Shown one piece after another: positions 33,378 through 55,905 of a stretch of DNA of 64,000 nt. A program made the translations under genes and the position numbers. Source of the stretch: Gemmatimonadota bacterium (GTDB lineage: Bacteria; Gemmatimonadota; Gemmatimonadetes; Gemmatimonadales; GWC2-71-9). The stretch covers positions 222 through 64,221 of the forward strand of contig QHTK01000047.1 in assembly GCA_003220795.1 (NCBI GenBank), given 5' to 3'. Numbering within the stretch: position 1 is the stretch's first letter; the number at the start of each line of letters is the position of its first letter. The notes beneath the pieces are model-generated. The model was not told where the DNA came from. It was given only the letters and a program-made list of their open reading frames with translations, and made no database searches.

Positions 33378-33450
33378 TGGAGCGGAGGGGATTCGAACCC
33401 CTGACCCCCTGGTTGCAAACCAGGTGCTCTCCCAGCTGAGCTACCGCCCC
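33378..33450 (-). tRNA. tRNA-Ala (anticodon UGC)
   Basis: The reverse complement is GGGGCGGTAGCTCAGCTGGGAGAGCACCTGGTTTGCAACCAGGGGGTCAGGGGTTCGAATCCCCTCCGCTCCA. It folds as a cloverleaf with the G3:U70 alanine identity pair, anticodon loop TTTGCAA and T-loop GGTTCGAATCC. CCA is not encoded. Confidence 0.95.
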
Positions 33451-39834: not shown

Positions 39835-41232
39835 CTACCCCACAACCCCCGCGGCGGCAGTGCGCTCCCTCACACCACGCCGCGCCAGCAGCAAGCCCAG
39901 TCCCATGAAGCCGATCACGCCACCCACGACCTTCGTCTCGTAGGTCCAGGGGTGCGGTTCGTCGGCGGGCGGTACGAAGCCCAGCACGATCGAAAACGCC
40001 ACCGCCGCAAGGCCCGCGAGACCGACCAGCAACGTGGCGGCACTGCGCGTTCGCCGCAGGCGCAGGTACGCGCCGAAGAGGTACAGATAGGGAATGAAGA
40101 AGAGGATGAGCGTCGTTTGGGTCAGCGCCAGGTAGGCGTTCTTCACGGTGGCGCCGACCAGGCTCGCGACCACGAAGACCGTGGCGAGCCCGCCCTGCAC
40201 CAGCAGCCCCACGTGCGGCGTGTGCCAGCGCGGATGGATGCGACCAAAAGCGGGCGGCAGGGCGCCGTCAATCCCCGCCACGAACGGGAGGCGGGCCGAT
40301 CCCGCGAGCCATGCCCCCACACCGCCCAGGTTCCCGAGCGCCAGCAGGATCGCCACCACGCCGGCGACGGGAGCGAGCCACGGCGCGCCGAGCCGCTGCG
40401 TCAGCGCCGCCGTCGCCTGCGGCACTCCGTTCGTGATGCTCACGGTCTCCGCCGGCAGGGCCACGAGCATCGCCGCCGTACCGAGAACGTACATCGCGAC
40501 GATGCCGAAGCCCGAGATGACGATGCCGCGCCGCAGCGTCGCCGCGGCATCGTGGATCTCGTCCCCCAGCGTCGGGGCGAGCTCGAGCCCGGCGAATGCG
40601 AACGTCATGGTGGCGAACAGATTGATCGACGGCAGACCGAGCTTCGCGGGGACCAGCCCGCGGAGCGCGAACGGCGTCGCGCTGCCGTGCGCCGCGAGCG
40701 ACCACGCCGCGAGCAGCACGAAGATGAGCGCCGGCAGCCACGTGCCGTACCCGCCCAGGTTCTGGAGCCGCTTCCCGATGCGAAGGCCGACCACGTTCAT
40801 GCCGACGGCGAGCCACAGCCCCGCCAGGGACAGCGCGCCGATGAACAGATTGTCGTCGCCCAAGCGCACGAAGCGCGGCCCGCCCGCGTAGGCGGCGATC
40901 GCCGCCGTCGCGACGAGCAGCGAAGGAAAGTAGAAGAGGTTGTTGACCCAGTAGCCCCAGCCCGCCACGAAGCCGTGCAACGGCCCGAACGCCCGGCGCA
41001 CCCAGCGGTAGATGCCACCGGCACCGGGATCGATGTCGGCGAGCTCCCGCACCGCCACCGCCGACGGCAGGAAAAAGACGACCATCGCGACCAGCCACAG
41101 AGACAAGCTGGCGAGTCCGAACTGGCTCGCCGCCGTGGTCAGCCAGCGCAGCCCGACGATCGCCGTGATGTTGAACAGCACGACGTCGGAGAGCCGCAGG
41201 ACGCGGGGTAGTCGGCTAGGGGGCTCGGGCAT
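39835..41232 (-). CDS. APC-superfamily amino acid permease
   Basis: The 465-aa ORF has about 12 TMs and an N-terminal LRLSDVVLFNITAIVGLRW...GAGGIYRWV typical of the APC family. Confidence 0.85.
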   Translation of the reverse strand: MPEPPSRLPRVLRLSDVVLFNITAIVGLRWLTTAASQFGLASLSLWLVAMVVFFLPSAVAVRELADIDPGAGGIYRWVRRAFGPLHGFVAGWGYWVNNLFYFPSLLVATAAIAAYAGGPRFVRLGDDNLFIGALSLAGLWLAVGMNVVGLRIGKRLQNLGGYGTWLPALIFVLLAAWSLAAHGSATPFALRGLVPAKLGLPSINLFATMTFAFAGLELAPTLGDEIHDAAATLRRGIVISGFGIVAMYVLGTAAMLVALPAETVSITNGVPQATAALTQRLGAPWLAPVAGVVAILLALGNLGGVGAWLAGSARLPFVAGIDGALPPAFGRIHPRWHTPHVGLLVQGGLATVFVVASLVGATVKNAYLALTQTTLILFFIPYLYLFGAYLRLRRTRSAATLLVGLAGLAAVAFSIVLGFVPPADEPHPWTYETKVVGGVIGFMGLGLLLARRGVRERTAAAGVVG

Positions 41233-41923
41233 GCACCGTGGCGGTGAGCCACCCGATGCTGCTGCCCAGCACCGCGCCGCCCGCCACGTCGGTGGGGAAA
41301 TGCTTGCCGCCCGTCACGCGCAGCACGGCGACGCCCACCGCCCCGGCGTACAGCAGGATCGCATTCCGGGCGCGGTGCGGCAGCTGCTCCCGCTGGGCGA
41401 TGACGAGATACGTCGTCGCCGCGGCGAACGCGAGCGAGGCGTGCCCCGAGGGGAACGACTGGCGGTTCTCCGGCCGCGACGCCGCCGCCGCCGCATCCGC
41501 CGTGTAGAGCACCGGGCGACTGCGATGCACCAGGACCTTGAGCCACTCGGTGGTCGCCTGCGTCCAGGCGAGCGAGTTGAGGAGCACCGCCGCGTTGCCG
41601 CGCCGCTGAGCGGGATCGAGCCCGTGGAACGAGACGAACGCGGCGGCGCCGACGACGCCTCCGAGCATCAGGGTGCTCGCGGTCGCGGCGCTCGCGGAAG
41701 CGTTGTGCAGCGCCGCGCGATCGATGTTCGGAACCGAGGCCGGATCGCATGGGGCGCACGGCGGCAGACCGTGCGGCAGATTCAGGGCAACGGGGATGAG
41801 TGTGAGCGCGCCCGCGGTGCCGACCGAAGCGGCGTCCCACCAGGTCACGCGATACGGTGCCTGACCCGCTGTCGGCCGGGCGACGGCGAACAGCCAGACG
41901 AAGACGATCGCCGACCGGGACAT
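41216..41923 (-). CDS. PAP2-family lipid phosphate phosphatase (exported)
   Basis: All three acid-phosphatase motifs are present: KVLVHRSRP, SFPSGHAS and LRVTGGKHFPTDV. It has a signal peptide. Confidence 0.85.
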   Translation of the reverse strand: MSRSAIVFVWLFAVARPTAGQAPYRVTWWDAASVGTAGALTLIPVALNLPHGLPPCAPCDPASVPNIDRAALHNASASAATASTLMLGGVVGAAAFVSFHGLDPAQRRGNAAVLLNSLAWTQATTEWLKVLVHRSRPVLYTADAAAAASRPENRQSFPSGHASLAFAAATTYLVIAQREQLPHRARNAILLYAGAVGVAVLRVTGGKHFPTDVAGGAVLGSSIGWLTATVHARAP

Positions 41924-42070
41924 GCAGACTCTCGCTCGAAACGGGAGGCTTGGAAGTTACGTCGTGACGGCGACGGGTGCTAACTCACGTTCGCGCGGGA
42001 CCTTGCGGTTTTGTTGTACCGCCACTACTCTCTAGGCTGCTGTTTTCCACCCAACCAGTCTGGGGGCCCC

Positions 42071-43276
42071 GTGAGTACCGAGACCCTGCAGCACGTCGCG
42101 CTCTTCGACAAGTGCAAGAACTTCACGCGGGCCGACGAGGTGCGAGCGGCCGGGTTGTACGCGTGGTTCAAACCGATTTCGCAGTCGGAAGACACGGTCG
42201 TGGTGATCGAAGGCAAGCCGCGCATCATGATGGGCTCCAATAACTACCTCGGGCTGACGCATCACCCCGAGGTGCTTGCCGCGGCGAAAGAGGCGCTCGA
42301 CGAATTCGGCTCCGGCTGCACCGGCAGCCGGTTTCTCAACGGGACACTGGAGCTGCACTGCCGGCTCGAGGCCGAGCTGGCCGAGTTCTTCGGGAAGGAA
42401 GCATGCCTCGTCTTCTCGACCGGCTATCAGGCGAACCTCGGCCTGATCTCCGGCCTCGTGGGTCGGGGCGATGTCGTGTTCCTCGACAAGCTCGATCACG
42501 CGTCCATCGTGGACGGCGCGAAGCTGTCCCACGGCGAAACCATGCGCTTCAACCACGGGGACTTGGCCGGCCTCGAGCGCAAGCTCCAGAAAGTGCCGGT
42601 CGGGACGGGCGTCATGATCATCGTCGACGGGGTGTTCTCGATGGAGGGGGACATCGCCGACGTGCCGAACCTGCTCAAAGTCGCCCAGAAATACGGTGCC
42701 GCACTCGCGATCGACGACGCGCACGCCGTGGGGGTGCTCGGCCCCAACGGGGACGGGACCGCGGCGCATTTCGGTGTGGCCGAAGACGTGGACCTCATCG
42801 TGGGCACCTTCTCGAAGTCGCTCGCCTCGATCGGCGGGTTCGTGGCGGCTTCCGAAGACATCATCGATTATCTGCGGCACCACTCGCGGCCCCTGATGTT
42901 CACGGCGGCGCTCCCGCCGGCGAACACCGCCGGGGTGCTCGCCGCGCTGCACGTGCTACGGCGCGAGCCCGAGCGCCGGGAGCAATTGTGGGCCAACACG
43001 CATCACCTGCAAGAGGGGCTGCGCTCGCTCGGATTCGAGATCGGGCCCACCGAGACCCCGATCGTCCCCTTCCTCATCGGGGACTTCGAGAAGACGTTGA
43101 CGTTCTGGCGCAAGCTGTTCGACGCCGGCGTCTTCACGAATCCTGTGGTGCCGCCCGCCGTGCCGCCGTCGCAGAGCCGGCTGCGGACCAGCGTGATGGC
43201 GACCCACACCGCCGATCAGTTGGACTTTGCCTTGCAGACCTTCGGCCGGCTGGGAAAAGAGCTGGGGGTCATCTGA
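42071..43276 (+). CDS. PLP-dependent alpha-oxoamine synthase, serine palmitoyltransferase-like
   Basis: It has GSNNYLGL, FGSGCTGSRFLNGT, STGYQANLG, DDAHAVG, GTFSKS (PLP lysine) and RPLMFTAALPP. The GTG at 42071 follows a GGGGG stretch. The family call is firm; the Spt sub-assignment rests on gene context. Confidence 0.85.
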   Translation: MSTETLQHVALFDKCKNFTRADEVRAAGLYAWFKPISQSEDTVVVIEGKPRIMMGSNNYLGLTHHPEVLAAAKEALDEFGSGCTGSRFLNGTLELHCRLEAELAEFFGKEACLVFSTGYQANLGLISGLVGRGDVVFLDKLDHASIVDGAKLSHGETMRFNHGDLAGLERKLQKVPVGTGVMIIVDGVFSMEGDIADVPNLLKVAQKYGAALAIDDAHAVGVLGPNGDGTAAHFGVAEDVDLIVGTFSKSLASIGGFVAASEDIIDYLRHHSRPLMFTAALPPANTAGVLAALHVLRREPERREQLWANTHHLQEGLRSLGFEIGPTETPIVPFLIGDFEKTLTFWRKLFDAGVFTNPVVPPAVPPSQSRLRTSVMATHTADQLDFALQTFGRLGKELGVI

Positions 43277-44388
43277 GCGCACTGGAGATCGCGCCCGTCA
43301 CCGGCGGGCGCGATCTCGAGCGCTTCATCGCCTTTCCGTACGCGCACTATCGGGGCGACCCGCTCTGGGTCCCACAGCTGCGCATGGACGTGCGCACACT
43401 GCTCTCCCCCGCGAAGAACCCGTTCTTCCGGCACGCCCAGGTCCAGTGCTTCATCGCCCACGCCAACGGCCGGACCGTGGGGCGGATCGCCGCCATCCAG
43501 AACGACGCCCACACCCGGGAGCACGGAGATCGGGTCGGGTTTTACGGCTTCTTCGAAAGCGTGAACGACCAGACGGTGGCAACCGCGCTGTTCGACGCGG
43601 CCGTGGCCTGGCTCCGGCCCCGGGGGCTCGCGGTCCTGCGCGGGCCGATGAGCCCCTCCATCAACGACGAGTGCGGTCTGCTGGTGCAGGGATTCGATAC
43701 CCCACCTACACTGATGATGTCGCACAACCCCTCCTACTACGTCGACCTGCATCAGCGCTACGGCTTCGCGAAGGCCAAGGATCTGCTGGTATACGAGAGC
43801 ACGACCACGCGACTCCCCGAGCGGATCGTGCGGGCCGTCACCGTGATCGCGCAACGCAAGGGCATCACGCTGCGGGCCCTCAACATGAAGCGCTTCCGAG
43901 CCGAGGTCGAGCTCGTCAAGGCACTCTACAACGACGCGTGGGAGAAAAACTGGGGGTTCGTGCCGCTGACCGAGGCGGAGATCGACCATCTCGCCACGCA
44001 GCTCAAGCCCATCGTCGTCCCGGACCTCGTGTGCTTCGCCGAACGGGCGGGCAAGGTCATCGGGTTCGCGGTGGCCCTGCCCGACCTGAACGTCGCACTC
44101 CGGCACAACCCGTCGGGCCGCATGTTCCCCGGCATCCTCAAGGTCCTGTGGCATGCGCGCAAGGTGAACCGCCTTCGTATTCTGCTGCTCGGCGTGCTGC
44201 CGCAGTACCGCTCGAGCGGCGTCGACGCGCTGCTGTACCACTGGATCTGGACCAAGGGGGTCGCCCATGGGTTCACCTGGGGCGAGGGGGGCTGGATCCT
44301 CGAGGACAACGCGGCGATGAACAACGCCGCCGTACAGCTCGGCTTTCGGCCCTACCGCACCTACCGGATCTACGACAAGCCCCTGTGA
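43273..44388 (+). CDS. GNAT-like N-acyltransferase (~370 aa), candidate bacterial ceramide synthase
   Basis: This is the real C-terminal part of composite track ORF 42403..44388 (LEIAPVTGGRDLERFIAFPY ... GVLPQYRSSGVDALLY ... GWILEDNAAMNNA). It has no canonical start near its N-terminus; a CTG at 43273 overlaps the upstream TGA. Confidence 0.65.
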   Translation: MSALEIAPVTGGRDLERFIAFPYAHYRGDPLWVPQLRMDVRTLLSPAKNPFFRHAQVQCFIAHANGRTVGRIAAIQNDAHTREHGDRVGFYGFFESVNDQTVATALFDAAVAWLRPRGLAVLRGPMSPSINDECGLLVQGFDTPPTLMMSHNPSYYVDLHQRYGFAKAKDLLVYESTTTRLPERIVRAVTVIAQRKGITLRALNMKRFRAEVELVKALYNDAWEKNWGFVPLTEAEIDHLATQLKPIVVPDLVCFAERAGKVIGFAVALPDLNVALRHNPSGRMFPGILKVLWHARKVNRLRILLLGVLPQYRSSGVDALLYHWIWTKGVAHGFTWGEGGWILEDNAAMNNAAVQLGFRPYRTYRIYDKPL

Positions 44389-45353
44389 AGGCGTTCGTCA
44401 CCGGCGGGACGGGGTTCGTCGGCGCCCACCTCGTGCAGACGCTGCTGGCGCGGGGCGCGGAGGTGCGCTGCCTCGTACGCAACCCCGCCAAGGCCCTGGC
44501 CCTCGGCTGGCGGGACGTGCGCCTCGTCCGCGGCGATCTGGACGACGCCGCCGCGCTGGCGGAGGGCTGCGCGGGAGCGGAGCTGGTGTTTCACCTCGCC
44601 GGCCGCATCAGCGCCCGCGATGTGCGGGAGTTCATGAGCGCGAACCGCGACGGCACGGCCAGCGTGCTCGAGGCCGCCTCGCTCCAGCCGCCCCAGCGCT
44701 TCGTGCTCGTCTCATCGCTCGCCGCCGGCGGCCCCACCACGCCGGGACATCCGATCGACGAGGAGCGCCGCCCCGCGCCGGTGACGCCCTACGGCCAGAG
44801 CAAGCTCGCGGCGGAGATCGTGGTCCGGGCGATGCCGTTCCCCTGGACCATCGTGCGCCCCCCGGCCGTGTATGGCGAGCGGGATCGCGAGACCCTCAAG
44901 GTGTTCAAGTTGGCACGCCGGGGACTCGTGCCCGTGTTCGGTGACGGATCCCAGGAGCTGTCGGTCGTCTACGCAGGAGACCTGGCGGCTGCACTGGTGG
45001 CCGCGGCAACCTCCCCCGGAGCGGCGCGTAAGGTATACTACGCGGCGCATCCCGCGGTCACGACGAGCGCCGCACTGGTACGAGCTGTGGGCCGCGCGGT
45101 GGGACGTGAGCCGCGCCTCCTACCGCTGCCGGCGCCGGTCGCGCGCGTGATGCTCTGGGCCATCGGATCGCTCGCTCACCTCGCAGGCCGGGCGACGGTG
45201 CTGTCGGCCGACAAGGCGGCCGAGTTTCTGGCTCCCGCCTGGACCTGCCGACCGGACGCGCTGATGCGGGACACGGGATGGTCCGCCGCTACCGATCTGA
45301 ACGCCGGGTTGCAACGCACGGCGGACTGGTACCGGAGGGAGGGGTGGCTGTGA
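44385..45353 (+). CDS. NAD(P)-dependent epimerase/dehydratase-type extended SDR, candidate ketoceramide reductase
   Basis: It has the Rossmann motif VTGGTGFVGAHL and a catalytic YGQSK. The GTG overlaps the upstream stop (GTGA). Confidence 0.85.
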   Translation: MKAFVTGGTGFVGAHLVQTLLARGAEVRCLVRNPAKALALGWRDVRLVRGDLDDAAALAEGCAGAELVFHLAGRISARDVREFMSANRDGTASVLEAASLQPPQRFVLVSSLAAGGPTTPGHPIDEERRPAPVTPYGQSKLAAEIVVRAMPFPWTIVRPPAVYGERDRETLKVFKLARRGLVPVFGDGSQELSVVYAGDLAAALVAAATSPGAARKVYYAAHPAVTTSAALVRAVGRAVGREPRLLPLPAPVARVMLWAIGSLAHLAGRATVLSADKAAEFLAPAWTCRPDALMRDTGWSAATDLNAGLQRTADWYRREGWL

Positions 45354-46306
45354 GCGACACGTCACACGACGCCACGACGGCGCGCCCCAAGGATACCTGG
45401 GCGACGTGGCGCCGTGCCGTCGTGCGGCGCTTCACCGCCGTCGATCTCGTCACCCTGTTGTACGTAGCGGTCGCCACCGTCGCCGTCCTGGCGTTCACCG
45501 CCGACGACCGCACGGGCTGGGACTGGCTGCTGCTGGCGCATGCACTGCTGGTCGCGCTCGTGCTGCTCGCCCCGCGGGCGCGCGAGGCGGGGCGCGTCGG
45601 ACGGTTCCTCGGCGACTGGTACCCTATGCTGTTGCTCGGCGGCCTGTACGCCGAAGTGGGCGTGCTCAACGTCGACGTCGGCTACCAGCACGACGTTACG
45701 ATTCAGCGCCTCGAGTTGTGGGTGTTCGGCTCGCAGGTGTCGTACCGCTGGATCCGCGAGTGGCCCAACCCGGTGTTCTCGTGGATCATGCACATCTGCT
45801 ACATCGCCTACTACGCGATCTTGTGCGCCTCGCCGCTCGGCCTGTGGCTCAGCGGGCGGCGCGACGCCGCGCGGCGCACGATCTTCGCCGTGATGATCAC
45901 GTTCTATCTCTGCTACGTCGTGTTCCTCTTCTTTCCCGTGGCCGGGCCGCGCTACGCCTTCGACCTCGCGCACAACGCCGCCACCGAGATCTGGCCGGCG
46001 CGCGCCACCCAGTGGCTGCTCGACCGCGGGGACTCCTGGGGCGCGGCCTTCCCGTCGTCGCATGTGGCCGCCGCCGTGGTCGCCACGATCTGCGCGCTGC
46101 GCTACTGGCGGCCCCTCGGGCTCGCGCTCGTGCCGCTGACGCTCGGGCTGGTCCTGTCGGTGGTGTACGGGCAGTTCCACTACGCGGTGGACGCCGTGTC
46201 GGGCCTGTTCGTGGCCGGCGCCGTACTCGCGTCGCAGTACGTGTACGGCGCGGAGCCGGAGAAGGTCGGTGCCTCGCTGCCCGCCGGGAGCTGGGAGCGG
46301 GCCTGA
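45350..46306 (+). CDS. polytopic PAP2_C-type protein, sphingomyelin / inositol-phosphorylceramide synthase-like head-group transferase
   Basis: It has about six TMs, FPSSHVAAA and QFHYAVDAVSGLFVAG (the H/H/D motifs of the SMS/AUR1 branch), and lacks the KxxxxxxRP motif of true phosphatases. The GTG overlaps the upstream stop (GTGA). Confidence 0.7.
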   Translation: MSDTSHDATTARPKDTWATWRRAVVRRFTAVDLVTLLYVAVATVAVLAFTADDRTGWDWLLLAHALLVALVLLAPRAREAGRVGRFLGDWYPMLLLGGLYAEVGVLNVDVGYQHDVTIQRLELWVFGSQVSYRWIREWPNPVFSWIMHICYIAYYAILCASPLGLWLSGRRDAARRTIFAVMITFYLCYVVFLFFPVAGPRYAFDLAHNAATEIWPARATQWLLDRGDSWGAAFPSSHVAAAVVATICALRYWRPLGLALVPLTLGLVLSVVYGQFHYAVDAVSGLFVAGAVLASQYVYGAEPEKVGASLPAGSWERA

Positions 46307-46314
46307 GTCGCGTT

Positions 46315-46387
46315 GGCTGCCCGGTATCGGGGTTCCACGGAGCGACTGTGTGCTTGTCGCGTAGTGGAACCCCGATACCGGGCAGCC
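46315..46387. terminator. perfect 24-bp inverted repeat with 25-nt loop between convergent operons (bidirectional terminator candidate)
   Basis: GGCTGCCCGGTATCGGGGTTCCAC (46315-46338) pairs with GTGGAACCCCGATACCGGGCAGCC (46364-46387). There is no U-tract on either side. The right arm abuts the stop at 46388. Confidence 0.65.
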
Positions 46388-46990
46388 TCAACGACTGACG
46401 CTCGCGGCTCGCGAAGCGACCGTGTCGAGGTCTCCCCCGAGGGCGTCCATGCGGCGTTGGAACTGGAGATCGATCAGCAGCAACCCGACGACGTACGCCG
46501 CCAGATTCACCACAAACACGATCGTGAAGATCCGCGGGTACGGCAGCCAGATTCCGAAATAGAGCGCGAACCGCTTGACCCCCGGGTCGAGCCCCGAGCG
46601 ATCCGTGATACTCGTCATGAGCAGAATCGCGACCAGCGCGAGCAGAACGAGCTTGACCGGAACGATCCCGGCCGCGGCGAACCCCGCGAAGATGACCGCT
46701 TCGGACGCCCGGTCGAGGCGTGTGTCGAGCCGCCGCCCCGCGTCGGAGGCGAGCCCGAACTCACGGGCGATCCCGCCGTCGATCCCGTCCAAAACCTGCC
46801 CCAACGCCATCAGGCCGAGGCCCCAACCCAGGCGACCGGCGGCGACGCTCGCGCCCGCGACGACGCTCACCCCGAAGGCCGCCCAGGTCACCTGCGCGGG
46901 CGACAGACCGAGTCTCAGGTGCGCGAACCGCAGCAGCGGGCGGATCGCCCGGTCTAATGCCTTGCCCAGTACAGGAGCAAATTCGTACAT
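46388..46990 (-). CDS. CDP-alcohol phosphatidyltransferase-family protein (minimal, ~200 aa)
   Basis: The signature [26 protein letters not shown] fits DGxxARx8Gx3Dx3D. The ATG at 46990 (MYEFAPVL) overlaps the upstream gene by 37 nt. Confidence 0.8.
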
Positions 46991-47391
46991 AGCAGGACGG
47001 CGAAGAGGACCCCTTCCTTCACCTTGTCGGGAATCCCCGTGAGCCACCCGCGGGTCACCCAGGGGGAGTAGGGGTACAGCGGCATCTTCTCGAAGCGGAC
47101 ACTGTAGTCCATGGCCACGTGGATCGCGAAGAACACCAGCGGGATGACGGTTCCGAGTAACCAGCACAGCGGCGTGATCCAGAGCAGCGCCACCGGCTCC
47201 TGCAACGACGAGCGCCAGTAGTAGCCGCGCTTGTCCACGAGCCCCACCGCCCGCAGGTAGAAAGGCGCCTTCACCGCATGGTCGACATCCACCCCGATCC
47301 CGAAGGCGTACGCGAGGGCGGCGTCGCGTCCGTGTAACTCCATCGCCTGCACGCCGAGCGTGGTGGCGAGGATGTGCGTGAAGACGGTCAC
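46954..47391 (-). CDS. small membrane protein, DUF457/YdjM-like metal-dependent hydrolase fold (tentative)
   Basis: A GTG at 47391 overlaps the upstream stop (GTGA). It has [13 protein letters not shown]...GVDVDHAV...HVAMD, a His/Asp pattern like the YdjM family. Confidence 0.5.
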
Positions 47392-48389
47392 GGCGCGGTG
47401 GCGCCCTCCCCGGCCGGCTGCCGTCCCGCCAGCCAGACGAGCGCGAGCCCGACGCCGATCCACGCCATGTCGCGCAGCCGGCTCACGATGGCGGTATAGA
47501 CGCCCAGCGCGGGATCGAGGCCCAGGAGCTGAAAGAAGAGGTACAGCGAGCCCTCCTTCGTGCCGACTTCGAAGGGCACGAAGAAGATCGTGTTCTGAAT
47601 CAGCGAGGTGAGCCCGCCGATGGCATACGCCTGAAAGTAGGTCATGTGCAGGCCCACGCCGAGACCGATCAGTACATACTCGAGCATGAAGATCGAGCGA
47701 CTGAGATACTCGAGGAGGAGCGCCTGAAAAAATCGCCCCGGTCGCCTGTGATAGAACTCCGTGATCTGCACGTCCATCTGGGCTAGCGTGGCCCGCAGAG
47801 ACTCGAGGCGCCGCGCCAGGCGGTGGAGCAAGGGGAGGCGGTGGATCAGGTCGAGCGCGCGCTCCAGCACGCCACGGCGGTGTCCCGTTAGCAGCAGCCA
47901 GCACAGAAGCGCCAGCACCACGAAGGCGACGGCCAACCCGGCGAGCAGCGCCGCGTGAGGGGGCAGGAGGAGAGCCCCGAGCACGATCGCCGTCAGGAAG
48001 CTCAGCAGCATGCCGAGCGTGTGCAGCATCTGATAGATCACGACCGAACCGGCCGCGCGCCGCACCCCGAGCCAGCGCGCCGCCGCCGCGATCTTGAACG
48101 GCTCACCCCCCACGTTGACCATCGGCGTGACGAAGTTGAGCGAGAATCCGGCGACGGTGATCGCGTACGCGCGCCAGAACGGCGGGCGAATCGGCTCGTC
48201 GGCCATGATCAGCCACCACGCCGACGTGTTGCAGGCGTAGACCACGCCGTACAGGATGAGGATCGGAACGAAGATCCATCCCGTGTGCTCCGCGTCGGCG
48301 AGCAGCCGCGCCACACCGATACGCGCCACCAGGTAGGCGAAGATCGCCGAGCCACAGACGAACAGCAGCGCTTGCAGCTTGCGGCTCAC
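47388..48389 (-). CDS. UPF0104 / lysyl-PG-synthase-TM (MprF flippase-like) domain membrane protein
   Basis: It has about eight TMs and [19 protein letters not shown], the conserved TPxxxGGEPxK motif. The GTG at 48389 overlaps the upstream stop (GTGA). Confidence 0.75.
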
Positions 48390-49411
48390 GCGTTTTCCGG
48401 GATGGCGACCCTGCAGCCGGTGTTGGCGGCCTGGTAAGCATGCTCGACCACGACCGCGACGCGGCGGATGTCCTCGAGGTAAGGGGCGGCGGCGTGGACC
48501 GGATCGCCCCGGTCGAGGGAGGCGATGAACGACGCGAAGAGGCCGGCGAACCAGCGGTGGTACGCCGCCTTGTCGAGCTCGGCCGAGAAATCGTGTCGCT
48601 CGAGCCTGCCCCCGCGCTCGAGCCGCAGCTCGCCGCCGACCCACTCGATGGCGCCGTGCTCGCCCGCGAAGCGGATGCGATTCTCGCGCTGGCGCGCAGC
48701 CCAGGTGAAGAACATCGTGACCAGCCGCTCGGGGTACTCGAAGTGCACCGACGCGGTGTCCTCGACCTCGTAGGCGCGGTGGCGCAGGCGGCCGGTCCAG
48801 GCGCTCACCGCGGCGGGCAGCCCCGCGACGTCGAGCATCTGGTAAATGAGATGGGTGCCGTGGTCGAGCAGCACGCCGCCCCGCCCCGCCGCGCTCGTCC
48901 CGCGCCACGGCGTCCCGCCGGCTTCACGGCCGGGGTCAGCGGTAAGCCGATAGACCGCGAGCTCGGCGAGGTGCCAGCGCCCGATCGCACCCTCGCGCAA
49001 CCATTCCTTCACTTTGACCCACACGGGGTTGAACCGGTACTGGTGACACGGCATCACGATCCGGCCGTGCGCGCGCGCCGCGGCGGCGATACGGTCCGCT
49101 TCGACCCGCGTGAGCGCGACCGGCTTCTCACAGACGACGTGGTAGCCTCGCTCGAGGCCCCAGAGGGTGAGGTCGAGATGCGAGGCCGTCGGCGTACAGA
49201 TGTCGATGAAGTCGAGTGGCCCTACCCGGGCGAGCTGCTCGGGGTGCGAGAGCAGCGGGATGCCGTCGACCGGCGGCACGTCGACGGCGCTGTCCACGAC
49301 GGCGACGATGTCGATGCGCGCACGCACGCCGGCCCCCGTCCGCAGGGCGGGGAGATGCGACTGCCGCGCCGTGCCGCCCGCCCCGATGACGGCACCCCGG
49401 TACCGCTGCAC
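48386..49411 (-). CDS. Gfo/Idh/MocA-family NAD(P)-dependent oxidoreductase
   Basis: It has the N-terminal Rossmann GAVIGAGGTARQSHLPAL, CEKPVALT and a C-terminal alpha/beta domain. The GTG at 49411 lies 1 nt after the upstream stop. Confidence 0.85.
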   Translation of the reverse strand: MQRYRGAVIGAGGTARQSHLPALRTGAGVRARIDIVAVVDSAVDVPPVDGIPLLSHPEQLARVGPLDFIDICTPTASHLDLTLWGLERGYHVVCEKPVALTRVEADRIAAAARAHGRIVMPCHQYRFNPVWVKVKEWLREGAIGRWHLAELAVYRLTADPGREAGGTPWRGTSAAGRGGVLLDHGTHLIYQMLDVAGLPAAVSAWTGRLRHRAYEVEDTASVHFEYPERLVTMFFTWAARQRENRIRFAGEHGAIEWVGGELRLERGGRLERHDFSAELDKAAYHRWFAGLFASFIASLDRGDPVHAAAPYLEDIRRVAVVVEHAYQAANTGCRVAIPENA

Positions 49412-49412
49412 G

Positions 49413-50327
49413 TCAGGTGAAGCGGGCGTAGGCATTGCGCTCGTGCTCGAGCGCGTCGCTGAGCGCCGTGGCGTTCCATTCATGCATCAGCAGCAGTACC
49501 ACGAGGAGCAGACTCATCGGCACCGCCTCGGCCCACAGGAACGCCGAGATGTGGCCCGCCACCGCCGCCGCGCCGAGCAGCAGGAAACGGATGTTCTGGC
49601 CCAGCCAGCTGCACAGCGGCAGCAGCACCTCCTGACGCTCGCGGTACTCCTCCCGGAAGGCCGGGGGCACGCTGCGCCCTCCGGCTCCGCCGGCCCGCAG
49701 CAGCCGCAGCAGCTTGACCGAGCGGGGGAACAGCTGCGACTGCCGCACGACGTAGTCCCGGTACACGCGCGCGCCGAAGCGCTCCAGCACCGTGCCTGCG
49801 GATCCGGCCTCCAGATCTTCGGGGAGATCGAGCTCTCCTGCCTTGCCCGTGCCCAAATCGAGGAAGGCATTGCGGATGAAATCCACCGCGGCGCTCTGGT
49901 AGGTGTGGGCGAGACCGGCGAGCGCGACCAGCAATACGCCCGCCCACCACACACCGCCGTGCATCAGCCGGTACATCAGGTGGAAGTACAGATTGACGAA
50001 TCGCAGGTTGTCGTTGATGCCGTCGAGCGCCCGGCCGAACCGAGTCGAGGTGCCGCGCAGCCGGGCGAGCTGGCCGTCCGCCGAATCGAACACGTCCGAC
50101 ACGATGAAGAGCACGAACCCGATGACGTCGATCCAGCGGTCCTGGTACACGAACAGATGGCCCGCCACCAGGCCCACCAGCAGCGACCACAGCGTGACCT
50201 GGTCGGGCGAGATGCCAGTCGAGTAGAGCGCCCGCGCGATCCGGATCCCGATGGGCCGGAAGAAGCGCAGGTCGAGCCATTCCTCGACCGCGCGACCCTT
50301 ATCCGACAAATCGTTCCGCGGCTTCAC
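49413..50327 (-). CDS. CDP-alcohol phosphatidyltransferase-family protein (304 aa)
   Basis: The signature DSADGQLARLRGTSTRFGRALDGINDN matches the family motif, and it has multiple TMs. Confidence 0.85.
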   Translation of the reverse strand: MKPRNDLSDKGRAVEEWLDLRFFRPIGIRIARALYSTGISPDQVTLWSLLVGLVAGHLFVYQDRWIDVIGFVLFIVSDVFDSADGQLARLRGTSTRFGRALDGINDNLRFVNLYFHLMYRLMHGGVWWAGVLLVALAGLAHTYQSAAVDFIRNAFLDLGTGKAGELDLPEDLEAGSAGTVLERFGARVYRDYVVRQSQLFPRSVKLLRLLRAGGAGGRSVPPAFREEYRERQEVLLPLCSWLGQNIRFLLLGAAAVAGHISAFLWAEAVPMSLLLVVLLLMHEWNATALSDALEHERNAYARFT

Positions 50328-51633
50328 CGAGTACGTCCTTCATGGTGGCGAGGGCGCCCATCGCCTGGTCCTCCTCGATGACCAGGGGCGGGTTGATTCG
50401 CACCTCGGGATTGTAGATCATCGCGAGCACGCCGCGCGACAGCAGGGTGTCGAAGATCCATCGCGTCGCTTTCTTGTCGAGCAGTTTGCGGGTCCCCGGC
50501 ACCACGAGGTCCAGGCCGATCAGCAAGCCGCGGCCGCGCACGTCCGACACGATCGGCAGCTCCGATTCCCAGCGCCGCAGCTCGGCCAGCATCTTGGCGC
50601 CGAGGCGCCGGGAGTGCTCGACCAGCCCATCCTCGATGATCGTCTCGACGGTGATGCGGGCGGCCGCCGCCGCGAGCGGATTCCCGCCATAGCTCGACGA
50701 GCTGCCGCTTGGATTGGCGAACGGCTTGGCGAACGCAAGCTCTTCGCGCGCGATGATGCCGCTCATGGGGAAGCCGCCCCCGAACCCCTTGCCGATCGTG
50801 ATCACGTCGGGAATCACGTCCTCGTGCTCGATGGCGAACATCTTCCCGGTGCGCCCGAACCCGGTGATCATCTCGTCGCAGATCAGGAGCGCGCCGAGCT
50901 CATCCGCGAGGAGACGCAATGCCCGGAGGTAGCCGGGCGGCGGCACGACATTGCCCGCCGTGCCCTGGATCGGCTCGACGATGATCGCCGCCACGTCCTT
51001 GGTGGTCTCGAGCTCCACCTTCTGCCTGAGGAACTCCACGCAGTGCCATTCGCACGACGGAAAGGTCTTGTCGAAGGCGCAGCGCGCGCACGCCGCGTAG
51101 GGTGAGAGATAGGCGCCCGGCATGAGCGGCCCGAGCGCGTGCTTGAAGCTCGCGCCGAGCACGGGGAGCACGCCGCCGGTCTTGCCGTGGAAGCCGCCCC
51201 AGAATCCCAGGACCTCGGTATGCCCGGTGCGCGACTTCGCCAGGCGGAGCGCTGCCTCCACCGCCTCCGCACCGCTCGAATAGAATTGCGTCCGGTTCAA
51301 GTCGCCGGGCGCGAGCTCCGCCAGCAGCTGGACCAGCGCCGCGCGGTGCTCGGTCGTGAAGCTGCCGACGTGAATTCGGGCGATCTGGCGCTGCAGCGCC
51401 GCCACGTAGCGGGGATGGGCGTACCCGAGGCTCGCGACGCCGACCCCCGCGAGCAGGTCGATGTAGCTGTTGCCGTCCACATCGTACAACACGGCGCCTT
51501 CGCCGCGATCGATCGAGAGCTGGCTGAATAGCGCTACGCTCTGGGTCCCGGGAGCGAGATACAGCGCCTCGCGGTCGAACAGGGCCTTCGACTTGGGGCC
51601 GGGAACCTGAATCCTGCGGATTGTATGGGTCAC
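50299..51633 (-). CDS. class-III (ornithine/GABA-type) PLP aminotransferase
   Basis: It has SGAEAVEAALRLA, EPIQGTAGNV, LICDEMITGFGRTGKMFA and TIGKGFGGGFP (PLP lysine). The GTG overlaps the upstream stop (GTGA). Confidence 0.9.
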   Translation of the reverse strand: MTHTIRRIQVPGPKSKALFDREALYLAPGTQSVALFSQLSIDRGEGAVLYDVDGNSYIDLLAGVGVASLGYAHPRYVAALQRQIARIHVGSFTTEHRAALVQLLAELAPGDLNRTQFYSSGAEAVEAALRLAKSRTGHTEVLGFWGGFHGKTGGVLPVLGASFKHALGPLMPGAYLSPYAACARCAFDKTFPSCEWHCVEFLRQKVELETTKDVAAIIVEPIQGTAGNVVPPPGYLRALRLLADELGALLICDEMITGFGRTGKMFAIEHEDVIPDVITIGKGFGGGFPMSGIIAREELAFAKPFANPSGSSSSYGGNPLAAAAARITVETIIEDGLVEHSRRLGAKMLAELRRWESELPIVSDVRGRGLLIGLDLVVPGTRKLLDKKATRWIFDTLLSRGVLAMIYNPEVRINPPLVIEEDQAMGALATMKDVLGEAAERFVG

Positions 51634-52472
51634 GCGTGTTTCCGGTGTGCGAACCGATGAGTGACATAGTCGGCAATGGCTCGCGCCGCTTCGTCACGGA
51701 ACGGCGCGAAGCTCGGCCAGTCGTTGATGTCGATGAGCACGGGGCGATCGGGCTCGGGGAACGCGACGTCGCCCCCGAACACCTCGAGCCCCAGGATCGC
51801 CGCCGCTTCGAACGCCAGCGCCTTCAGCCGATTCTCGTCGATCTTGGGCCGCTCGCCCGCCAACCCCGCGTCCGAGCCGTACCAACGGAAGAAGCGCCCG
51901 TCGGTCACCCCGTAGAACTTCACGATCGGGCCGGGCACGTGCTCCTGCAACGCGACCCAGGGGATGCCGCGCGCCGTGAACGCGTGCAGCTCGTCCGCGA
52001 TGCGCTCGCGCGAGGTCGCCACGACGTCTTCGGGACGCTCGGCGTGCACGTCGCCCCGCTTGATCCACACCTTGCGATCGTCCGGGTAAAAGGCGTCGAC
52101 TTGCTCCGGCGACAGCGGCGCCGAGCTGGCGAGGATGAGCGTGCGAGGGAACGACAGGGTGCTGTCCCCGAGCCGCTTCACCAACCGGTAGCGGTGACAG
52201 TTGAGCGCGCTCGACGGGCGGTTGACGACCACCGCTCCATCGCTCTCCAGCGGCATCAGCTGCTCCGCGGCGAGCGACCCCTGACACATGTTCAGGTACA
52301 ACGCCGCGACCGGCAGGCGTCCCTGCTCGACCTCGCGCTCGCTGGTCTTGACGGCGTTCCACCCGCTCCTGGCGAGCTCCGAGACGGTGGCGTCCAGGAT
52401 CGCGGTGTCGTTCACCCGATGTTGCATCGGCGAATACGACGGGCTGCGATAAATCGCGACCAGTTGCGTCAA
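51630..52472 (-). CDS. ATP-grasp-fold protein, inositol-phosphate-kinase (ITPK1)-like or RimK-like
   Basis: The C-terminal GLEVFGGDVAFPEPDRPVLIDINDWPSF resembles the FGxDxx...VIDINxFPG strand-loop of ITPK1-type ATP-grasp enzymes. The assignment is tentative. Confidence 0.6.
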   Translation of the reverse strand: MTQLVAIYRSPSYSPMQHRVNDTAILDATVSELARSGWNAVKTSEREVEQGRLPVAALYLNMCQGSLAAEQLMPLESDGAVVVNRPSSALNCHRYRLVKRLGDSTLSFPRTLILASSAPLSPEQVDAFYPDDRKVWIKRGDVHAERPEDVVATSRERIADELHAFTARGIPWVALQEHVPGPIVKFYGVTDGRFFRWYGSDAGLAGERPKIDENRLKALAFEAAAILGLEVFGGDVAFPEPDRPVLIDINDWPSFAPFRDEAARAIADYVTHRFAHRKHA

Positions 52473-52499
52473 GGCGGTCTCGCTCCCCGGGGTCCGGAC

Positions 52500-53213
52500 T
52501 CAGGCCTCGCGCGCGGCCAGCCACGCGTTGGCAGTTTGCAGATCTGATGGACGATCGATATCGATGATGCGCGGCACCTCGACCACTCCCACCCGCCCAC
52601 CGTCGGCGACCACGCCGGCCAGGTACCGTCGCATCTTGTGCAAGCCGCGGTCGACGGCGTCGGCCGCAGCGTCGCGGGCCCCGGCGCTCAGGCCGTAGAC
52701 GCCGCCCGTGACGCAGCGCGGGTGGAGCGGCTTGTCGCTGACGGAGCGGACGAAACCGTCTTCCCCTGTGCTCACGTACACTGGAGACTCGTCATCCACG
52801 TACGGCGTCACAGCGAGCACCATGTCGGCGCCCTCGGCCAGCTGGCGCTCCGCCCCGCTGTAGACCGCTTGCCAGTCGTGCGGTCGCATCACCGTGTCCA
52901 CCATACTGCAGAACACCGGGCCCGGCGCCACCGCGTGGAGCCCCTCGACCAGCGTGTGGAGCGACGAGGGGGTGCGGCACTCGATCACCTTAAGGGGGCG
53001 CCCAAACCGGGTTCCGTCAAGCACGCGCCGCACCATCGGGAAGTCCGCACGAACTGCACACGTGAGACTGGTGCACCCGAGGGCCTCGAACGTCTCGAGC
53101 AAGCGCACAATCTGCGGCCTCCCGGCCACCTGCACGAGGGGCTTGGGAGGCGATCCCTCTCCTGCGGTTGCGAGCCGCGAGCCTTCCCCGCCCGCGAGGA
53201 TCAAACCGTGCAC
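52500..53213 (-). CDS. nucleotidyltransferase (sugar/alcohol-phosphate NTP transferase, GlmU/LicC/IPCT-like)
   Basis: It has the N-terminal (GTG)HGLILAGGEGSRL signature and a Rossmann-like 237-aa body. Confidence 0.85.
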   Translation of the reverse strand: MHGLILAGGEGSRLATAGEGSPPKPLVQVAGRPQIVRLLETFEALGCTSLTCAVRADFPMVRRVLDGTRFGRPLKVIECRTPSSLHTLVEGLHAVAPGPVFCSMVDTVMRPHDWQAVYSGAERQLAEGADMVLAVTPYVDDESPVYVSTGEDGFVRSVSDKPLHPRCVTGGVYGLSAGARDAAADAVDRGLHKMRRYLAGVVADGGRVGVVEVPRIIDIDRPSDLQTANAWLAAREA

Positions 53214-53214
53214 G

Positions 53215-53841
53215 CTAGTCGAGGATCCTTTCGATCTCGGGGAGCCGCGCGATGCGCGCCGTGGGGTCGGGCCCCGGCGGCTGCTCCCGGTCCGGCGGCG
53301 CCAGCCAGCACGTCCGTAGCCCGAGCCCGGCGGCCCCCCCGATGTCCGCCTCGAAGTTGTCGCCCACCATCCAGGCGCGGTCCGCGGGCGCCCCGCCCAG
53401 CGCGCCCAGCGTCTCGCGGAAGATCCGGGGATCGGGTTTGGCCGCGCCTACCACGGCCGAGTCGCTGACTGCCGTGAACAGCCGGGCCAGGCCGAGCTCG
53501 TCCAGACAGGGCGCCAGGTTCCCCGTGAAATTCGAAACGATGCCAAGACGGTAGCGACGCGCGAGGCGCTCGAGCACGGGCTGGTTGCGCGTCGCGATCG
53601 CACGTGCCTGGGCATGAAACTGCTCCGCCATCCGCCCCGCATCGACCGCCGCGCGGTCGGGCACGAGCTCGAGCAACAGGCTGGTCTGCTTCTCGATCAT
53701 CTGCCGGAAGCCGAAGCGGCGGATGTCGGCCGTCCGGGCCAGTGTCTCGTCCGCCCGTTGGTAGAGCGGCTCGAACGCCGCATAGCCGAGCGCGCCGCCG
53801 GCCGCCCGGTACGCCGCGTGGAAGCGCGGGCTCCAATGCAC
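53215..53841 (-). CDS. HAD-superfamily hydrolase/phosphatase (subfamily IA-like)
   Basis: It has motif II (LGIVSNF), motif III (AKPD) and motif IV (VGDNFEADIGGA). Motif I (LFDFGGTLD) lies in frame upstream of the first canonical start, so the true 5' end is probably near 53886-53901 (see findings). Confidence 0.8.
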   Translation of the reverse strand: MHWSPRFHAAYRAAGGALGYAAFEPLYQRADETLARTADIRRFGFRQMIEKQTSLLLELVPDRAAVDAGRMAEQFHAQARAIATRNQPVLERLARRYRLGIVSNFTGNLAPCLDELGLARLFTAVSDSAVVGAAKPDPRIFRETLGALGGAPADRAWMVGDNFEADIGGAAGLGLRTCWLAPPDREQPPGPDPTARIARLPEIERILD

Positions 53842-55902: not shown

Positions 55903-55905
55903 CGG

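Follow-up and report, generated by a model that had tools for sequence, protein, structure and literature searches.

The four genes at positions 42071-46306 of the window, the 64,000-nucleotide stretch of Gemmatimonadota DNA analysed here, are predicted to direct the synthesis of a phosphosphingolipid, following the bacterial ceramide route of Caulobacter and Bacteroides fragilis with one additional head-group step. We assign this reading a probability of roughly 0.78. What the analysis shows directly is how the genes are built, the families and folds to which they belong, their catalytic motifs and their conserved synteny; every enzymatic activity, the order of the second and third steps and the head group are inferred. 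The four open reading frames are tightly packed and co-directional, and carry the motifs that a first-pass annotation had attributed to them. They are most likely co-transcribed and belong to a soil Gemmatimonadales genome:

42071..43276, plus strand: gene 1, predicted serine palmitoyltransferase (Spt), a PLP-dependent alpha-oxoamine synthase (AOS); 401 aa, GTG start
43282..44388, plus strand: gene 2, predicted bCerS-type tandem-GNAT N-acyltransferase; 368 aa, likely CTG start
44385..45353, plus strand: gene 3, CerR-like extended SDR, putative 3-keto(dihydro)ceramide reductase; 322 aa
45350..46306, plus strand: gene 4, polytopic PAP2_3 (Aur1/IPC-synthase-type) protein, presumed ceramide phospho-head-group transferase; 318 aa

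Three overlapping stop/start junctions had been proposed within this group. Two of them stand, namely the GTGA overlaps at 44385 (genes 2 and 3) and at 45350 (genes 3 and 4). The latter is preceded by ggagggagggg, and gene 4 is predicted to be translationally coupled to cerR through this overlap and the Shine-Dalgarno-like sequence. The third, at 43273, is doubtful as the start of gene 2. The letters CTGA are present there, and one homologue (P0025) begins at the equivalent position, but close homologues open with MEIAPV at the codon corresponding to 43282, which is CTG in the window, GTG in a strain variant (L001) and ATG or GTG in relatives. Gene 2 probably starts at this non-canonical CTG rather than in the CTGA overlap, which would leave a 5-nt spacer after gene 1.

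By homology, gene 1 encodes a Bacteroidota-type serine palmitoyltransferase, with its GTFSKS motif beginning at residue 245. Spt was the top match in both NCBIfam and the PDB, with a lead of more than 100 bits. The NCBIfam SerpalmtaseCFB profile scored 534 bits, below the Spt equivalog cut-off of 640, compared with 411 for bioF and 399 for Kbl, and the best PDB matches were the Sphingobacterium multivorum Spt structures 3a2b and 8guh (437 bits, about 49% identity). In a neighbour-joining tree, gene 1 shared a clade with the characterised S. multivorum Spt (100% bootstrap), and this clade split from Escherichia coli Kbl (98%) and from BioF.

The gene 2 product is modelled as a soluble tandem-GNAT protein (AF2 pLDDT 94.6). 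It shares 44% identity with a Roseomonas protein and 36% with a Klebsiella plasmid protein, both encoded in Caulobacter-type sphingolipid clusters, in keeping with the proposed relationship to bCerS. The Klebsiella gene adjoins genes for a fatty acyl-AMP ligase, an epimerase, an ACP and an AOS (an aasR-cerR-acpR-spt neighbourhood). The Roseomonas gene sits between lptF/lptG paralogues and a nucleotidyltransferase gene (lptF2/G2-cerS-cpgD), in agreement with the arrangement in Caulobacter, CC_1156/1155 - cerS CC_1154 - CC_1152 (PMC11324152). AOS-GNAT and GNAT-epimerase fusion proteins are also known. Gene 3 carries GGTGFVG at residue 7 and YGQSK at residue 136, matches Pfam Epimerase at 126 bits and has NDUFA9 proteins among its PDB relatives. 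Its relationship to the epimerase-type reductase of the same Klebsiella cluster (30% identity, E 1.7e-27) agrees with its description as CerR-like. The sequence comparisons suggested in the first-pass annotation thus bore out its three core family assignments.

Gene 4 had been described as a polytopic PAP2_C protein with PSSH and HYAVD motifs and no K(x6)RP. The superfamily, the polytopic character and the motifs (PSSH at 235-238, HYAVD at 277-281, and no K(x6)RP, or C1, motif in the protein) hold, but the family does not: Pfam PAP2_3 (PF14378) scored 69 bits, over its cut-off, and PAP2_C 18 bits, under its cut-off of 27. On this basis we place gene 4 in the Aur1/PAP2_3 branch rather than the SMS/PAP2_C branch. 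H238, H277 and D281 were invariant among 35 homologues, and the 39-residue spacing between the histidines and the HxxxD motif are as in Aur1 H255/H294/D298. A profile search found no PDB sequence relatives, and the structural model is of only moderate confidence (pLDDT 66, TM about 0.5); its top three Foldseek matches were the IPC synthase 9vj4, Aur1 9ivc and SMSr 8ijq, two of them ceramide-bound.

The gene order is conserved well beyond this genome. In 80 species-level genomes retrieved via gene 2, Spt adjoined the gene 2 homologue in 72 loci and was a neighbour in every locus where this could be checked. Among the 51 Gemmatimonadota loci, 46 had Spt immediately upstream in the same orientation (the remaining five ran off the contig), 47 had the SDR downstream and 43 had PAP2_3 downstream, with four more off contig. 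All four genes were present in 3/3 Eisenbacteria loci, and the four-gene order is typical of these two groups. In Bacteroidota and Ignavibacteria the Spt-GNAT pair recurs, accompanied by a divergent SDR, and PAP2_3 adjoined the cluster in none of the 17 loci examined. An overlapping AOS-GNAT-epimerase order was found on a plasmid of Streptomyces sp. NBC_01001 and, with different spacing, on plasmid 1 of Rubrobacter radiotolerans, whose GNAT proteins are 38-41% identical to gene 2. Such a tight operon is therefore no novelty, and clustering of Spt, bCerS and CerR has also been published (PMC11334938). The window adds a further instance of an established route, in a phylum for which we found no report of sphingolipids in the literature searched.

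The operon is flanked by the following features, those of the nine-gene operon being family assignments listed in transcription order:

41216..41923, minus strand: canonical PAP2 lipid-phosphate phosphatase (Pfam PAP2), divergently transcribed; 235 aa
46306..46396, no strand: long hairpin between convergent operons, with inverted-repeat arms of 41 nt
46388..53841, minus strand: convergent nine-gene operon, comprising
53215-53841, minus strand: HAD phosphatase
52500-53213, minus strand: NTP transferase
51630-52472, minus strand: weak ATP-grasp-like protein
50299-51633, minus strand: class-III aminotransferase
49413-50327, minus strand: CDP-alcohol transferase
48386-49435, minus strand: Gfo/Idh/MocA oxidoreductase
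47388-48389, minus strand: LPG_synthase_TM/flippase-like protein
46954-47391, minus strand: 145-aa membrane protein
46388-46990, minus strand: CDP-alcohol transferase

The upstream PAP2 protein has complete motifs (C1 KVLVHRSRP, C2 PSGH, C3 R..HFPTD) and is weakly related to undecaprenyl-diphosphatase and PgpB. Its position upstream of spt is conserved across 12 Gemmatimonadota genomes and about 40 metagenome contigs, and we regard it as an associated neighbour of uncertain role. The hairpin (-70.6 kcal/mol, z = -10.8) is likely a bidirectional terminator. PAP2_3 adjoined the nine-gene operon in every listed contig (at least 12 kb) that reached beyond the CDP-alcohol transferase CDPOH200, and this operon was missing from more distant Gemmatimonadota that retain the four genes. 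Its products possibly supply or modify the head group of the same pathway. The combination of an NTP transferase, two CDP-alcohol transferases, an oxidoreductase, an aminotransferase and a HAD protein hints at an inositol-derived head group; no inositol-phosphate synthase (MIPS) gene was present among the window ORFs scanned.

In the proposed pathway, Spt, through the PLP lysine in GTFSKS, would condense L-serine and an acyl-CoA to 3-ketodihydrosphingosine (3-KDS), a step expected to need neither an ACP nor an acyl-ACP synthetase in this lineage. The tandem-GNAT protein would then N-acylate this product with a second acyl-CoA, giving 3-keto-dihydroceramide, and the SDR would use NAD(P)H to reduce the 3-keto group, giving dihydroceramide. 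Finally, the PAP2_3 protein would use its triad H238/H277/D281 in two moves: the phospho-alcohol of a donor glycerophospholipid would first be loaded on the C3-motif histidine, with loss of diacylglycerol, and would then be handed to the C1 hydroxyl of the ceramide. Phosphatidylinositol is slightly favoured as the donor, with PE and PG as realistic alternatives. The lack of ACP and acyl-ACP synthetase genes, pointed out in the first-pass annotation, is unremarkable: according to PMC9386255, bacteria other than the alpha-, beta- and gamma-Proteobacteria are expected to lack them.

Other readings of gene 1 would change the product. If it were BioF or Kbl of biotin or threonine metabolism, the cluster would be coincidental; the bioF and Kbl HMMs do score 400-410 bits, as with any alpha-oxoamine synthase, and a BioA-fold aminotransferase (50299-51633) lies 4 kb away. 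That aminotransferase reached only 228 bits, far short of the 405 required for BioA, and bioB, bioD and tdh are absent within 10 kb of the operon, much as had been claimed. Gene 1 also falls outside both branches at 98-100% bootstrap, and the GNAT and SDR synteny is kept across phyla, so this reading is effectively refuted by tree, gene context and synteny. It is very unlikely that the operon yields a related lipid outside the sphingolipids, such as a capnine-type sulfonolipid built from cysteate or a different N-acyl amino-ketone lipid. Cysteate-C-fatty acyltransferases also belong to the alpha-oxoamine synthases and share their fold (28eh, 247 bits); they are present in the FCB group, from which the nearest relatives come, and the sequence gives no confident reading of substrate specificity; the Spt matches nevertheless lie about 190 bits higher, and the clade with full bootstrap support holds a biochemically characterised Spt.

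With Spt retained for gene 1, the same products could arise in a eukaryote-like order, the SDR reducing 3-ketosphinganine to sphinganine before the GNAT protein acylates it. This is the order put forward for Caulobacter by Olea-Ozuna et al. (PMC11324152), and PMC9278070 describes a separate 3-KDS reductase, BT_0972, in B. thetaiotaomicron. Moreover, the Rossmann motif of the window SDR starts at residue 7, leaving no obvious signal peptide, so the enzyme may share the compartment of Spt. We consider this order somewhat unlikely, as the genes run spt-GNAT-SDR and knockouts of the homologous reductases in B. fragilis and Caulobacter build up keto-ceramide, not 3-KDS. In B. fragilis, 3-KDS accumulates in the cerS knockout and keto-dihydroceramide in the cerR knockout (bioRxiv 10.1101/2023.05.23.541633), and Caulobacter localisation data agree with acylation before reduction (PMC11087976). 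It is unlikely, too, that genes 1-3 make ceramide while gene 4 is a phosphatase acting on ceramide-1-phosphate, long-chain-base phosphate, or a polyprenyl or PIP-type phosphate. Bacterial PAP2 proteins are mostly phosphatases, LpxE and PgpB appear lower among the fold matches, and gene 4 scored a negligible 14 bits (cut-off 480) on NF052609, the model of the sole characterised bacterial IPC synthase. Against this, gene 4 lacks the phosphate-binding C1 motif, as do Aur1 and SMS, whereas the genuine PAP2 protein next door retains the motif; among Pfam families, PAP2_3 fits gene 4 best; and each of its three leading fold matches is a sphingolipid phosphotransferase. We therefore presume gene 4 to be a ceramide phospho-head-group transferase.

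The pathway of Caulobacter crescentus uses Spt CCNA_01220, bCerS CCNA_01212 and CerR CCNA_01222 (Stankeviciute 2022; Olea-Ozuna 2021, 2024). The window shares these three enzyme families, and presumably the chemistry, with the GNAT and SDR homology seen via the Roseomonas and Klebsiella cluster proteins. It differs in having a single tight operon without a dedicated ACP or acyl-ACP synthetase, an Spt of Bacteroidota type, and a PAP2_3 gene in place of the ceramide kinase and Cpg enzymes, so that the head-group chemistry would differ. Although the nearest characterised Spt comes from the Bacteroidota, the pathway genes clustered here are dispersed in gut Bacteroides (PMC11334938), where the B. 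fragilis enzymes are CerS BF9343_4218 and CerR BF9343_4240.

For gene 4, the bacterial counterpart is BT_1522 of Bacteroides thetaiotaomicron, an AUR1 homologue and phosphoinositol-dihydroceramide synthase (PMC9246714, PMC8791184). Both are Aur1-like bacterial PAP2 proteins, BT_1522 placing a phospho-head group on dihydroceramide, and both loci include CDP-alcohol phosphatidyltransferase and LPG-synthase-like genes. Gene 4 is nevertheless very distant from BT_1522 and lies within the spt operon, not in an inositol cluster, and has no MIPS gene nearby. It resembles Saccharomyces cerevisiae Aur1 (9ivc, 9vj4) and human SMSr (8ijq) in fold and in an H-H-D triad drawn from the C2 and C3 motifs, with Aur1's histidine spacing, but is bacterial, shorter and only about 15% identical in sequence; no Kei1-like partner was identified, and SMS belongs to PAP2_C. 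Finally, the Actinomycetota operons have an identical AOS-GNAT-epimerase order, with a condensation-domain protein (Streptomyces) or an LTA-synthase-family protein (Rubrobacter) in the place of PAP2_3, suggesting that the tailoring enzyme in the fourth position varies from lineage to lineage.

The four plus-strand ORFs and the motifs quoted for them in the first-pass annotation are present in the window, which has a G+C content of ~70%. The features of the region to which the analysis refers are the following.

Features of the operon and its surroundings
33378–33450, minus strand: tRNA, the sole Rfam match in the window
41216–41923, minus strand: PAP2 gene, divergent from spt
42071–43276, plus strand: gene 1, predicted serine palmitoyltransferase (Spt)
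43282–44388, plus strand: gene 2, predicted GNAT ceramide synthase (bCerS)-type acyltransferase
44385–45353, plus strand: gene 3, extended SDR resembling the reductase CerR
45350–46306, plus strand: gene 4, PAP2_3 protein
46306–46396: near-perfect inverted repeat between gene 4 and the convergent operon (41-nt arms, −70.6 kcal/mol, z = −10.8)
46388–53841, minus strand: tightly packed nine-gene operon, convergent to genes 1–4
52500–53213, minus strand: MobA-like NTP transferase of the nine-gene operon (237-aa ORF, GTG start, VHGLILAGGEGSRL..., PF12804 46.8 bits)
53894–56745, minus strand: three genes, for a 362-aa protein (hyp362), an alpha/beta hydrolase and a VTT/DedA-domain membrane protein

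The Spt protein of the window is also encoded on WNEX01000020.1 (GCA_009771465.1) and several scaffolds from soil metagenomes, with 1–8 nt differences from the window across the 4,236-nt operon. All named relatives of the window proteins belong to MAGs labelled 'Gemmatimonadales bacterium'. Regarding the stop/start overlaps proposed to couple the genes, the GTGA junctions at 44385 and 45350 are both real; the CTGA at 43273 is doubtful as the start of gene 2, with close homologues beginning MEIAPV at the position equivalent to 43282. There, the homologous protein P0005 starts with ATG and P0020 with V, and six contigs, that of the window among them, have CTG at this codon, whereas the strain variant L001 has GTG (window 43273–43290; L001 11203–11220). 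One homologue, P0025, starts at the position equivalent to 43273. Judging from these alignments, gene 2 most likely begins at 43282 with a non-canonical, weak CTG codon, 5 nt past the stop of gene 1. When CTG is not accepted as a start, gene callers shorten the protein from 368 to 334 aa, and a conserved N-terminal block is lost. At the other end of the operon, the hairpin at 46306–46396, which has no T tract, is likely to be a bidirectional terminator and marks the 3' end of the gene 1–4 transcription unit. No sigma-70-like promoter was found in 41800–46500.

Gene 1 carries the GTFSKS PLP-lysine motif from residue 245 and has the class I/II aminotransferase fold (PF00155, 202 bits). Among NCBIfam models, the Bacteroidota-type Spt model SerpalmtaseCFB ranks top with 534 bits, short of its equivalog cut-off of 640 and more than 100 bits over the beta-proteobacterial Spt model, bioF and Kbl. 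The same order was obtained against PDB sequences, where the Spt of Sphingobacterium multivorum scores 437 bits (~49% identity) and other Spts 323 and 319 bits, followed by Thermus BioF/Kbl (305 bits), E. coli Kbl (280 bits), cysteate acyltransferase (247 bits), BioF (at most 229 bits), ALAS (215 bits) and CqsA (138 bits). In a neighbour-joining tree (383 columns, 200 bootstraps, with a thin outgroup sampling of one BioF and one Kbl), gene 1 shares a clade of 100% bootstrap support with S. multivorum Spt and Spt-like genes from Bacteroidota, Ignavibacteria, Zixibacteria and Eisenbacteria. The complete Spt clade, to which the Spt of S. wittichii also belongs, is separated from BioF and, at 98%, from E. 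coli Kbl. The tree with these two outgroups agrees with the HMM ranking. The phylogeny thus upholds the proposal that the synthase is an Spt, and the PDB scores and the tree together rule out a role as BioF or Kbl. A sulfonolipid synthase, the other alpha-oxoamine synthase considered, is very unlikely from the scores (247 bits for cysteate acyltransferase against 437 for Spt) and from the tree. The sequence evidence supports gene 1 as a bacterial Spt, predicted to condense L-serine with a long-chain acyl thioester.

The ~370-aa product of gene 2 lacks hydrophobic segments and is therefore expected to be soluble. It gives only a weak GNAT match (PF00583, 28 bits); no other curated family and no NCBIfam model matched, and no relative was found among PDB sequences. 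This is a large family (1,665 clusters at 50% identity with E < 1e-30), and the homologue searches with genes 2 and 4 yielded no more than close relatives from Gemmatimonadales, whose names are uninformative. An AlphaFold (AF2) model built from 38 diverse homologues (pLDDT 94.6) has a tandem-GNAT fold resembling MAB_4324, the mycothiol synthase MshD and FemX, and the modelled fold is that of a two-domain N-acyltransferase scaffold. We anchored the bCerS family by the genomic position of homologues in Caulobacter-type clusters, the link to Proteobacteria coming from tblastn against plasmids. The homologue on a Klebsiella michiganensis plasmid (36.3% identity, E 7e-66) adjoins genes for a fatty acyl-AMP ligase, an NAD-dependent epimerase, an ACP and a class I/II aminotransferase, which is the arrangement of Caulobacter CC_1165–CC_1162, identified as aasR-cerR-acpR-spt (PMC11324152). 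On the Roseomonas plasmid pRo-1, the homologue (43.7% identity) lies between LptF/LptG paralogues and a CpgD-like nucleotidyltransferase, with an acylglycerol-kinase-family gene and a CDP-alcohol transferase nearby. This layout mirrors that of Caulobacter, in which CC_1156/1155 are LptF2/G2, CC_1154 is cerS, CC_1152 is CpgD and CC_1160 is the ceramide kinase (PMC11324152). With 36.3–43.7% identity to GNATs of Caulobacter-type clusters, the relationship to bCerS expected at first pass is likely, and gene 2 is supported, at the level of sequence and gene context, as a predicted bCerS-type N-acyltransferase. Public data also contain predicted fusions of the alpha-oxoamine synthase with the GNAT protein (P0258 and P0359; 780 aa and a 648-aa fragment), a predicted 467-aa fusion of the GNAT protein with an epimerase (P0346) and a predicted duplicated GNAT of 784 aa (P0241); these may be real fusions or artefacts of gene calling.

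The Klebsiella element (NZ_CP106839.1, 115876–122422) is a conjugative enterobacterial IncFIB plasmid and carries a full Caulobacter-type ceramide set of acyl-AMP ligase, epimerase, ACP, Spt and GNAT genes, along with a diacylglycerol kinase gene. The GNAT query had matches on three Escherichia plasmids as well.

Gene 3 encodes an extended SDR with GGTGFVG and YGQSK motifs, of the TGxxGxxG/YxxxK type (PF01370, 126 bits), and its PDB relatives include NDUFA9 proteins, at 50–55 bits. In the Klebsiella cluster, its counterpart is the epimerase whose gene separates those for the acyl-AMP ligase and the ACP. Identity between the two is modest (30% over 311 aa, E 1.7e-27); this similarity to a Caulobacter-type cluster reductase supports gene 3 as CerR-like. 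CerR is periplasmic and peripherally associated with the inner membrane (PMC11087976); in gene 3, the Rossmann motif starts as early as residue 7, leaving no room for a classical signal peptide. A hopanoid-related role was considered for the region, given that HpnA is the best NCBIfam match of gene 3 and that the flippase-like gene of the convergent operon matches HpnL. The idea was rejected, as both scores are far below the cut-offs (122 bits against 368 for HpnA, 70 against 196 for HpnL) and there is no cyclase or squalene-synthesis gene.

A genome scan seeded with gene 2 (14-sequence alignment) yielded 80 species-level loci, none of them from Proteobacteria, which were then searched with all window proteins. 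Spt is adjacent to the gene 2 homologue in 72 of the 80, and most of the others are contigs that end early. In Gemmatimonadota (51 loci), Spt lies upstream on the same strand in 46, the other 5 being at contig ends; the SDR is downstream in 47, and a PAP2_3 gene follows it in 43, with 4 more running off the contig. All 3 Eisenbacteria loci have Spt upstream, the SDR downstream and PAP2_3 after the SDR. In Bacteroidota (8 loci) and Ignavibacteria (9 loci), the Spt–GNAT pair is retained, Spt being upstream in 7 and 8 loci, respectively. In these 17 loci, no SDR lies downstream and no PAP2_3 gene lies next to the cluster; the SDR is found elsewhere in the locus in 5 and 7 of them, usually upstream and divergent. 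The order of alpha-oxoamine synthase, GNAT and reductase genes is also that of a Streptomyces plasmid (L173), with overlapping junctions, and of plasmid 1 of Rubrobacter radiotolerans (L174, 14230–19822), although the fourth gene encodes a condensation-domain protein in the former and an LTA-synthase-family protein in the latter; these are alternative tailoring enzymes of the fourth slot. The recurrence of the three genes across phyla with a differing fourth gene indicates that the three-gene core is old and widely shared, which fits the literature, and that the fourth slot is lineage-specific. Genes for ACP and acyl-ACP synthetase are restricted to alpha-, beta- and gamma-Proteobacteria (PMC9386255), and on that basis their absence from the operon is expected. 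Four loci (L113, L134, L139 and L142) have an extra SDR–PAP2_3–SDR paralogue module in the same island, upstream of the hyp362 homologue; in these soil contigs, its products share 33–41% identity with those of genes 3 and 4.

Gene 4 had been proposed to belong to PAP2_C, the sphingomyelin synthase family, an assignment that had to be revised: PF14360 scores 18 bits, below its cut-off of 27, while PF14378 (PAP2_3), which we take to be the Pfam family of Aur1 and Ipt1, scores 69.4 bits against the same cut-off. As stated at first pass, the K(x6)RP sequence (C1 motif) is absent. H238 (in PSSH), H277 and D281 (both in HYAVD) are invariant among 35 homologues, and the H-to-H spacing of 39 with HxxxD is that of Aur1, for which the triad H255/H294/D298 was defined experimentally, in contrast to the spacing of 43 in TbSLS1 and SMSr (PMC13133130). 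The divergent PAP2 gene at 41216–41923, whose position is kept in many Gemmatimonadales, has all three motifs (C1 KVLVHRSRP, C2 PSGH and C3) and a signal-like N-terminus. The two genes are an internal contrast of phosphatase-type and transferase-type proteins, and the divergent one could be a PIP-type or a ceramide-phosphate phosphatase.

Sequence and profile searches of PDB sequences with gene 4 gave only noise and no relative. The AlphaFold model is of moderate confidence (pLDDT 66, pTM 0.69); with this model, the first two Foldseek matches in the PDB are a ceramide-bound IPC synthase (9vj4) and Aur1–Kei1 (9ivc), with E values of 3e-3 and 1e-2 and TM of 0.5–0.57. Human SMSr with ceramide (8ijq) ranks third, with TM of 0.34–0.39, and the phosphatases LpxE and PgpB stand below these three sphingolipid enzymes. 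The sole NCBIfam match is NF052609, the phosphoinositol dihydroceramide synthase model of the type of BT_1522, the AUR1 homologue of Bacteroides thetaiotaomicron, at 14.2 bits against a cut-off of 480, a score that places gene 4 outside the BT_1522 equivalog group. We conclude that gene 4 is predicted to work like an Aur1/SMS-type phosphotransferase. Taken together, the bioinformatic evidence supports the prediction that genes 1–4 are an operon of the known bacterial ceramide-synthesis type with a divergent Aur1-like head-group transferase.

The convergent operon encodes a HAD phosphatase, the NTP transferase (mis-called in the public annotation as a 178-aa hypothetical protein), a weak ATP-grasp-like protein, a class-III aminotransferase, a 304-aa CDP-alcohol phosphatidyltransferase, a Gfo/Idh/MocA oxidoreductase, an LPG_synthase_TM/flippase-like protein with an MprF-type flippase domain, a 145-aa membrane protein and a 200-aa CDP-alcohol phosphatidyltransferase. 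Both CDP-alcohol transferases retain the catalytic motif, and their top matches, which are weak (44–58 bits), are archaetidylinositol-phosphate (AIP)/PIP synthases. [quoted passage not shown] This gene content invites the idea that the whole 15-kb island (41.2–56.7 kb) serves one pathway, whose product would be a phosphosphingolipid with a new head group. The NTP transferase would then activate an inositol-type polyol as a CDP-alcohol, which the Gfo/Idh/MocA enzyme would oxidize and the class-III aminotransferase transaminate, and the ATP-grasp-like protein might add further decoration. The two CDP-alcohol phosphotransferases and the HAD phosphatase would attach the product, the MprF-type domain would flip it and the Aur1-like gene 4 product would transfer the head group to ceramide. 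Among the matches listed that are at least 12 kb long and reach past the gene of the 200-aa transferase, every contig has PAP2_3 beside the nine-gene operon, in a search that covered close relatives of at least 73% identity. The nine-gene operon is missing from many, more distant Gemmatimonadota that retain gene 4, and gene 4 therefore cannot depend on it. In Gemmatimonadota without the nine-gene operon, the gene for hyp362, a protein with a signal-like N-terminus and no family match, directly follows gene 4, so the nine-gene operon looks inserted between the two. We consider a single pathway spanning the island unlikely; if it were true, an amino-cyclitol phosphoceramide would be made in an abundant, uncultured soil lineage.

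Gemmatimonadota rank with the most abundant phyla of soil. Reports of sphingolipids from this phylum were sought in the literature and none was found, and the supplements of the Black Sea paper mention neither Gemmatimonadota nor CCNA_01212. The operon predicts ceramide-based phospholipids in most Gemmatimonadota and in Eisenbacteria, which would bear on their envelope biology and on the reading of soil lipid biomarkers. To our knowledge, BT_1522 is the only characterized bacterial PAP2-fold enzyme that adds a phospho-head group to ceramide. Gene 4 is a very divergent, operon-linked and directly clonable candidate for this transfer, and it could reveal the donor specificity of the large uncharacterized PAP2_3 branch. 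The core finding extends published surveys and overturns nothing. With respect to known systems, an NTP transferase, a CDP-alcohol transferase, a HAD protein and an LPG-synthase-like protein make up the proposed 'alternative' inositol-lipid cluster of Bacteroides vulgatus and Prevotella (PMC9246714). The nine-gene operon resembles the CDP-inositol cluster of B. vulgatus, with the addition of an oxidize-and-aminate pair, and the placing of an AUR1 homologue beside CDP-alcohol transferase and LPG-synthase-like genes is reminiscent of BT_1521–BT_1523 (PMC9246714).
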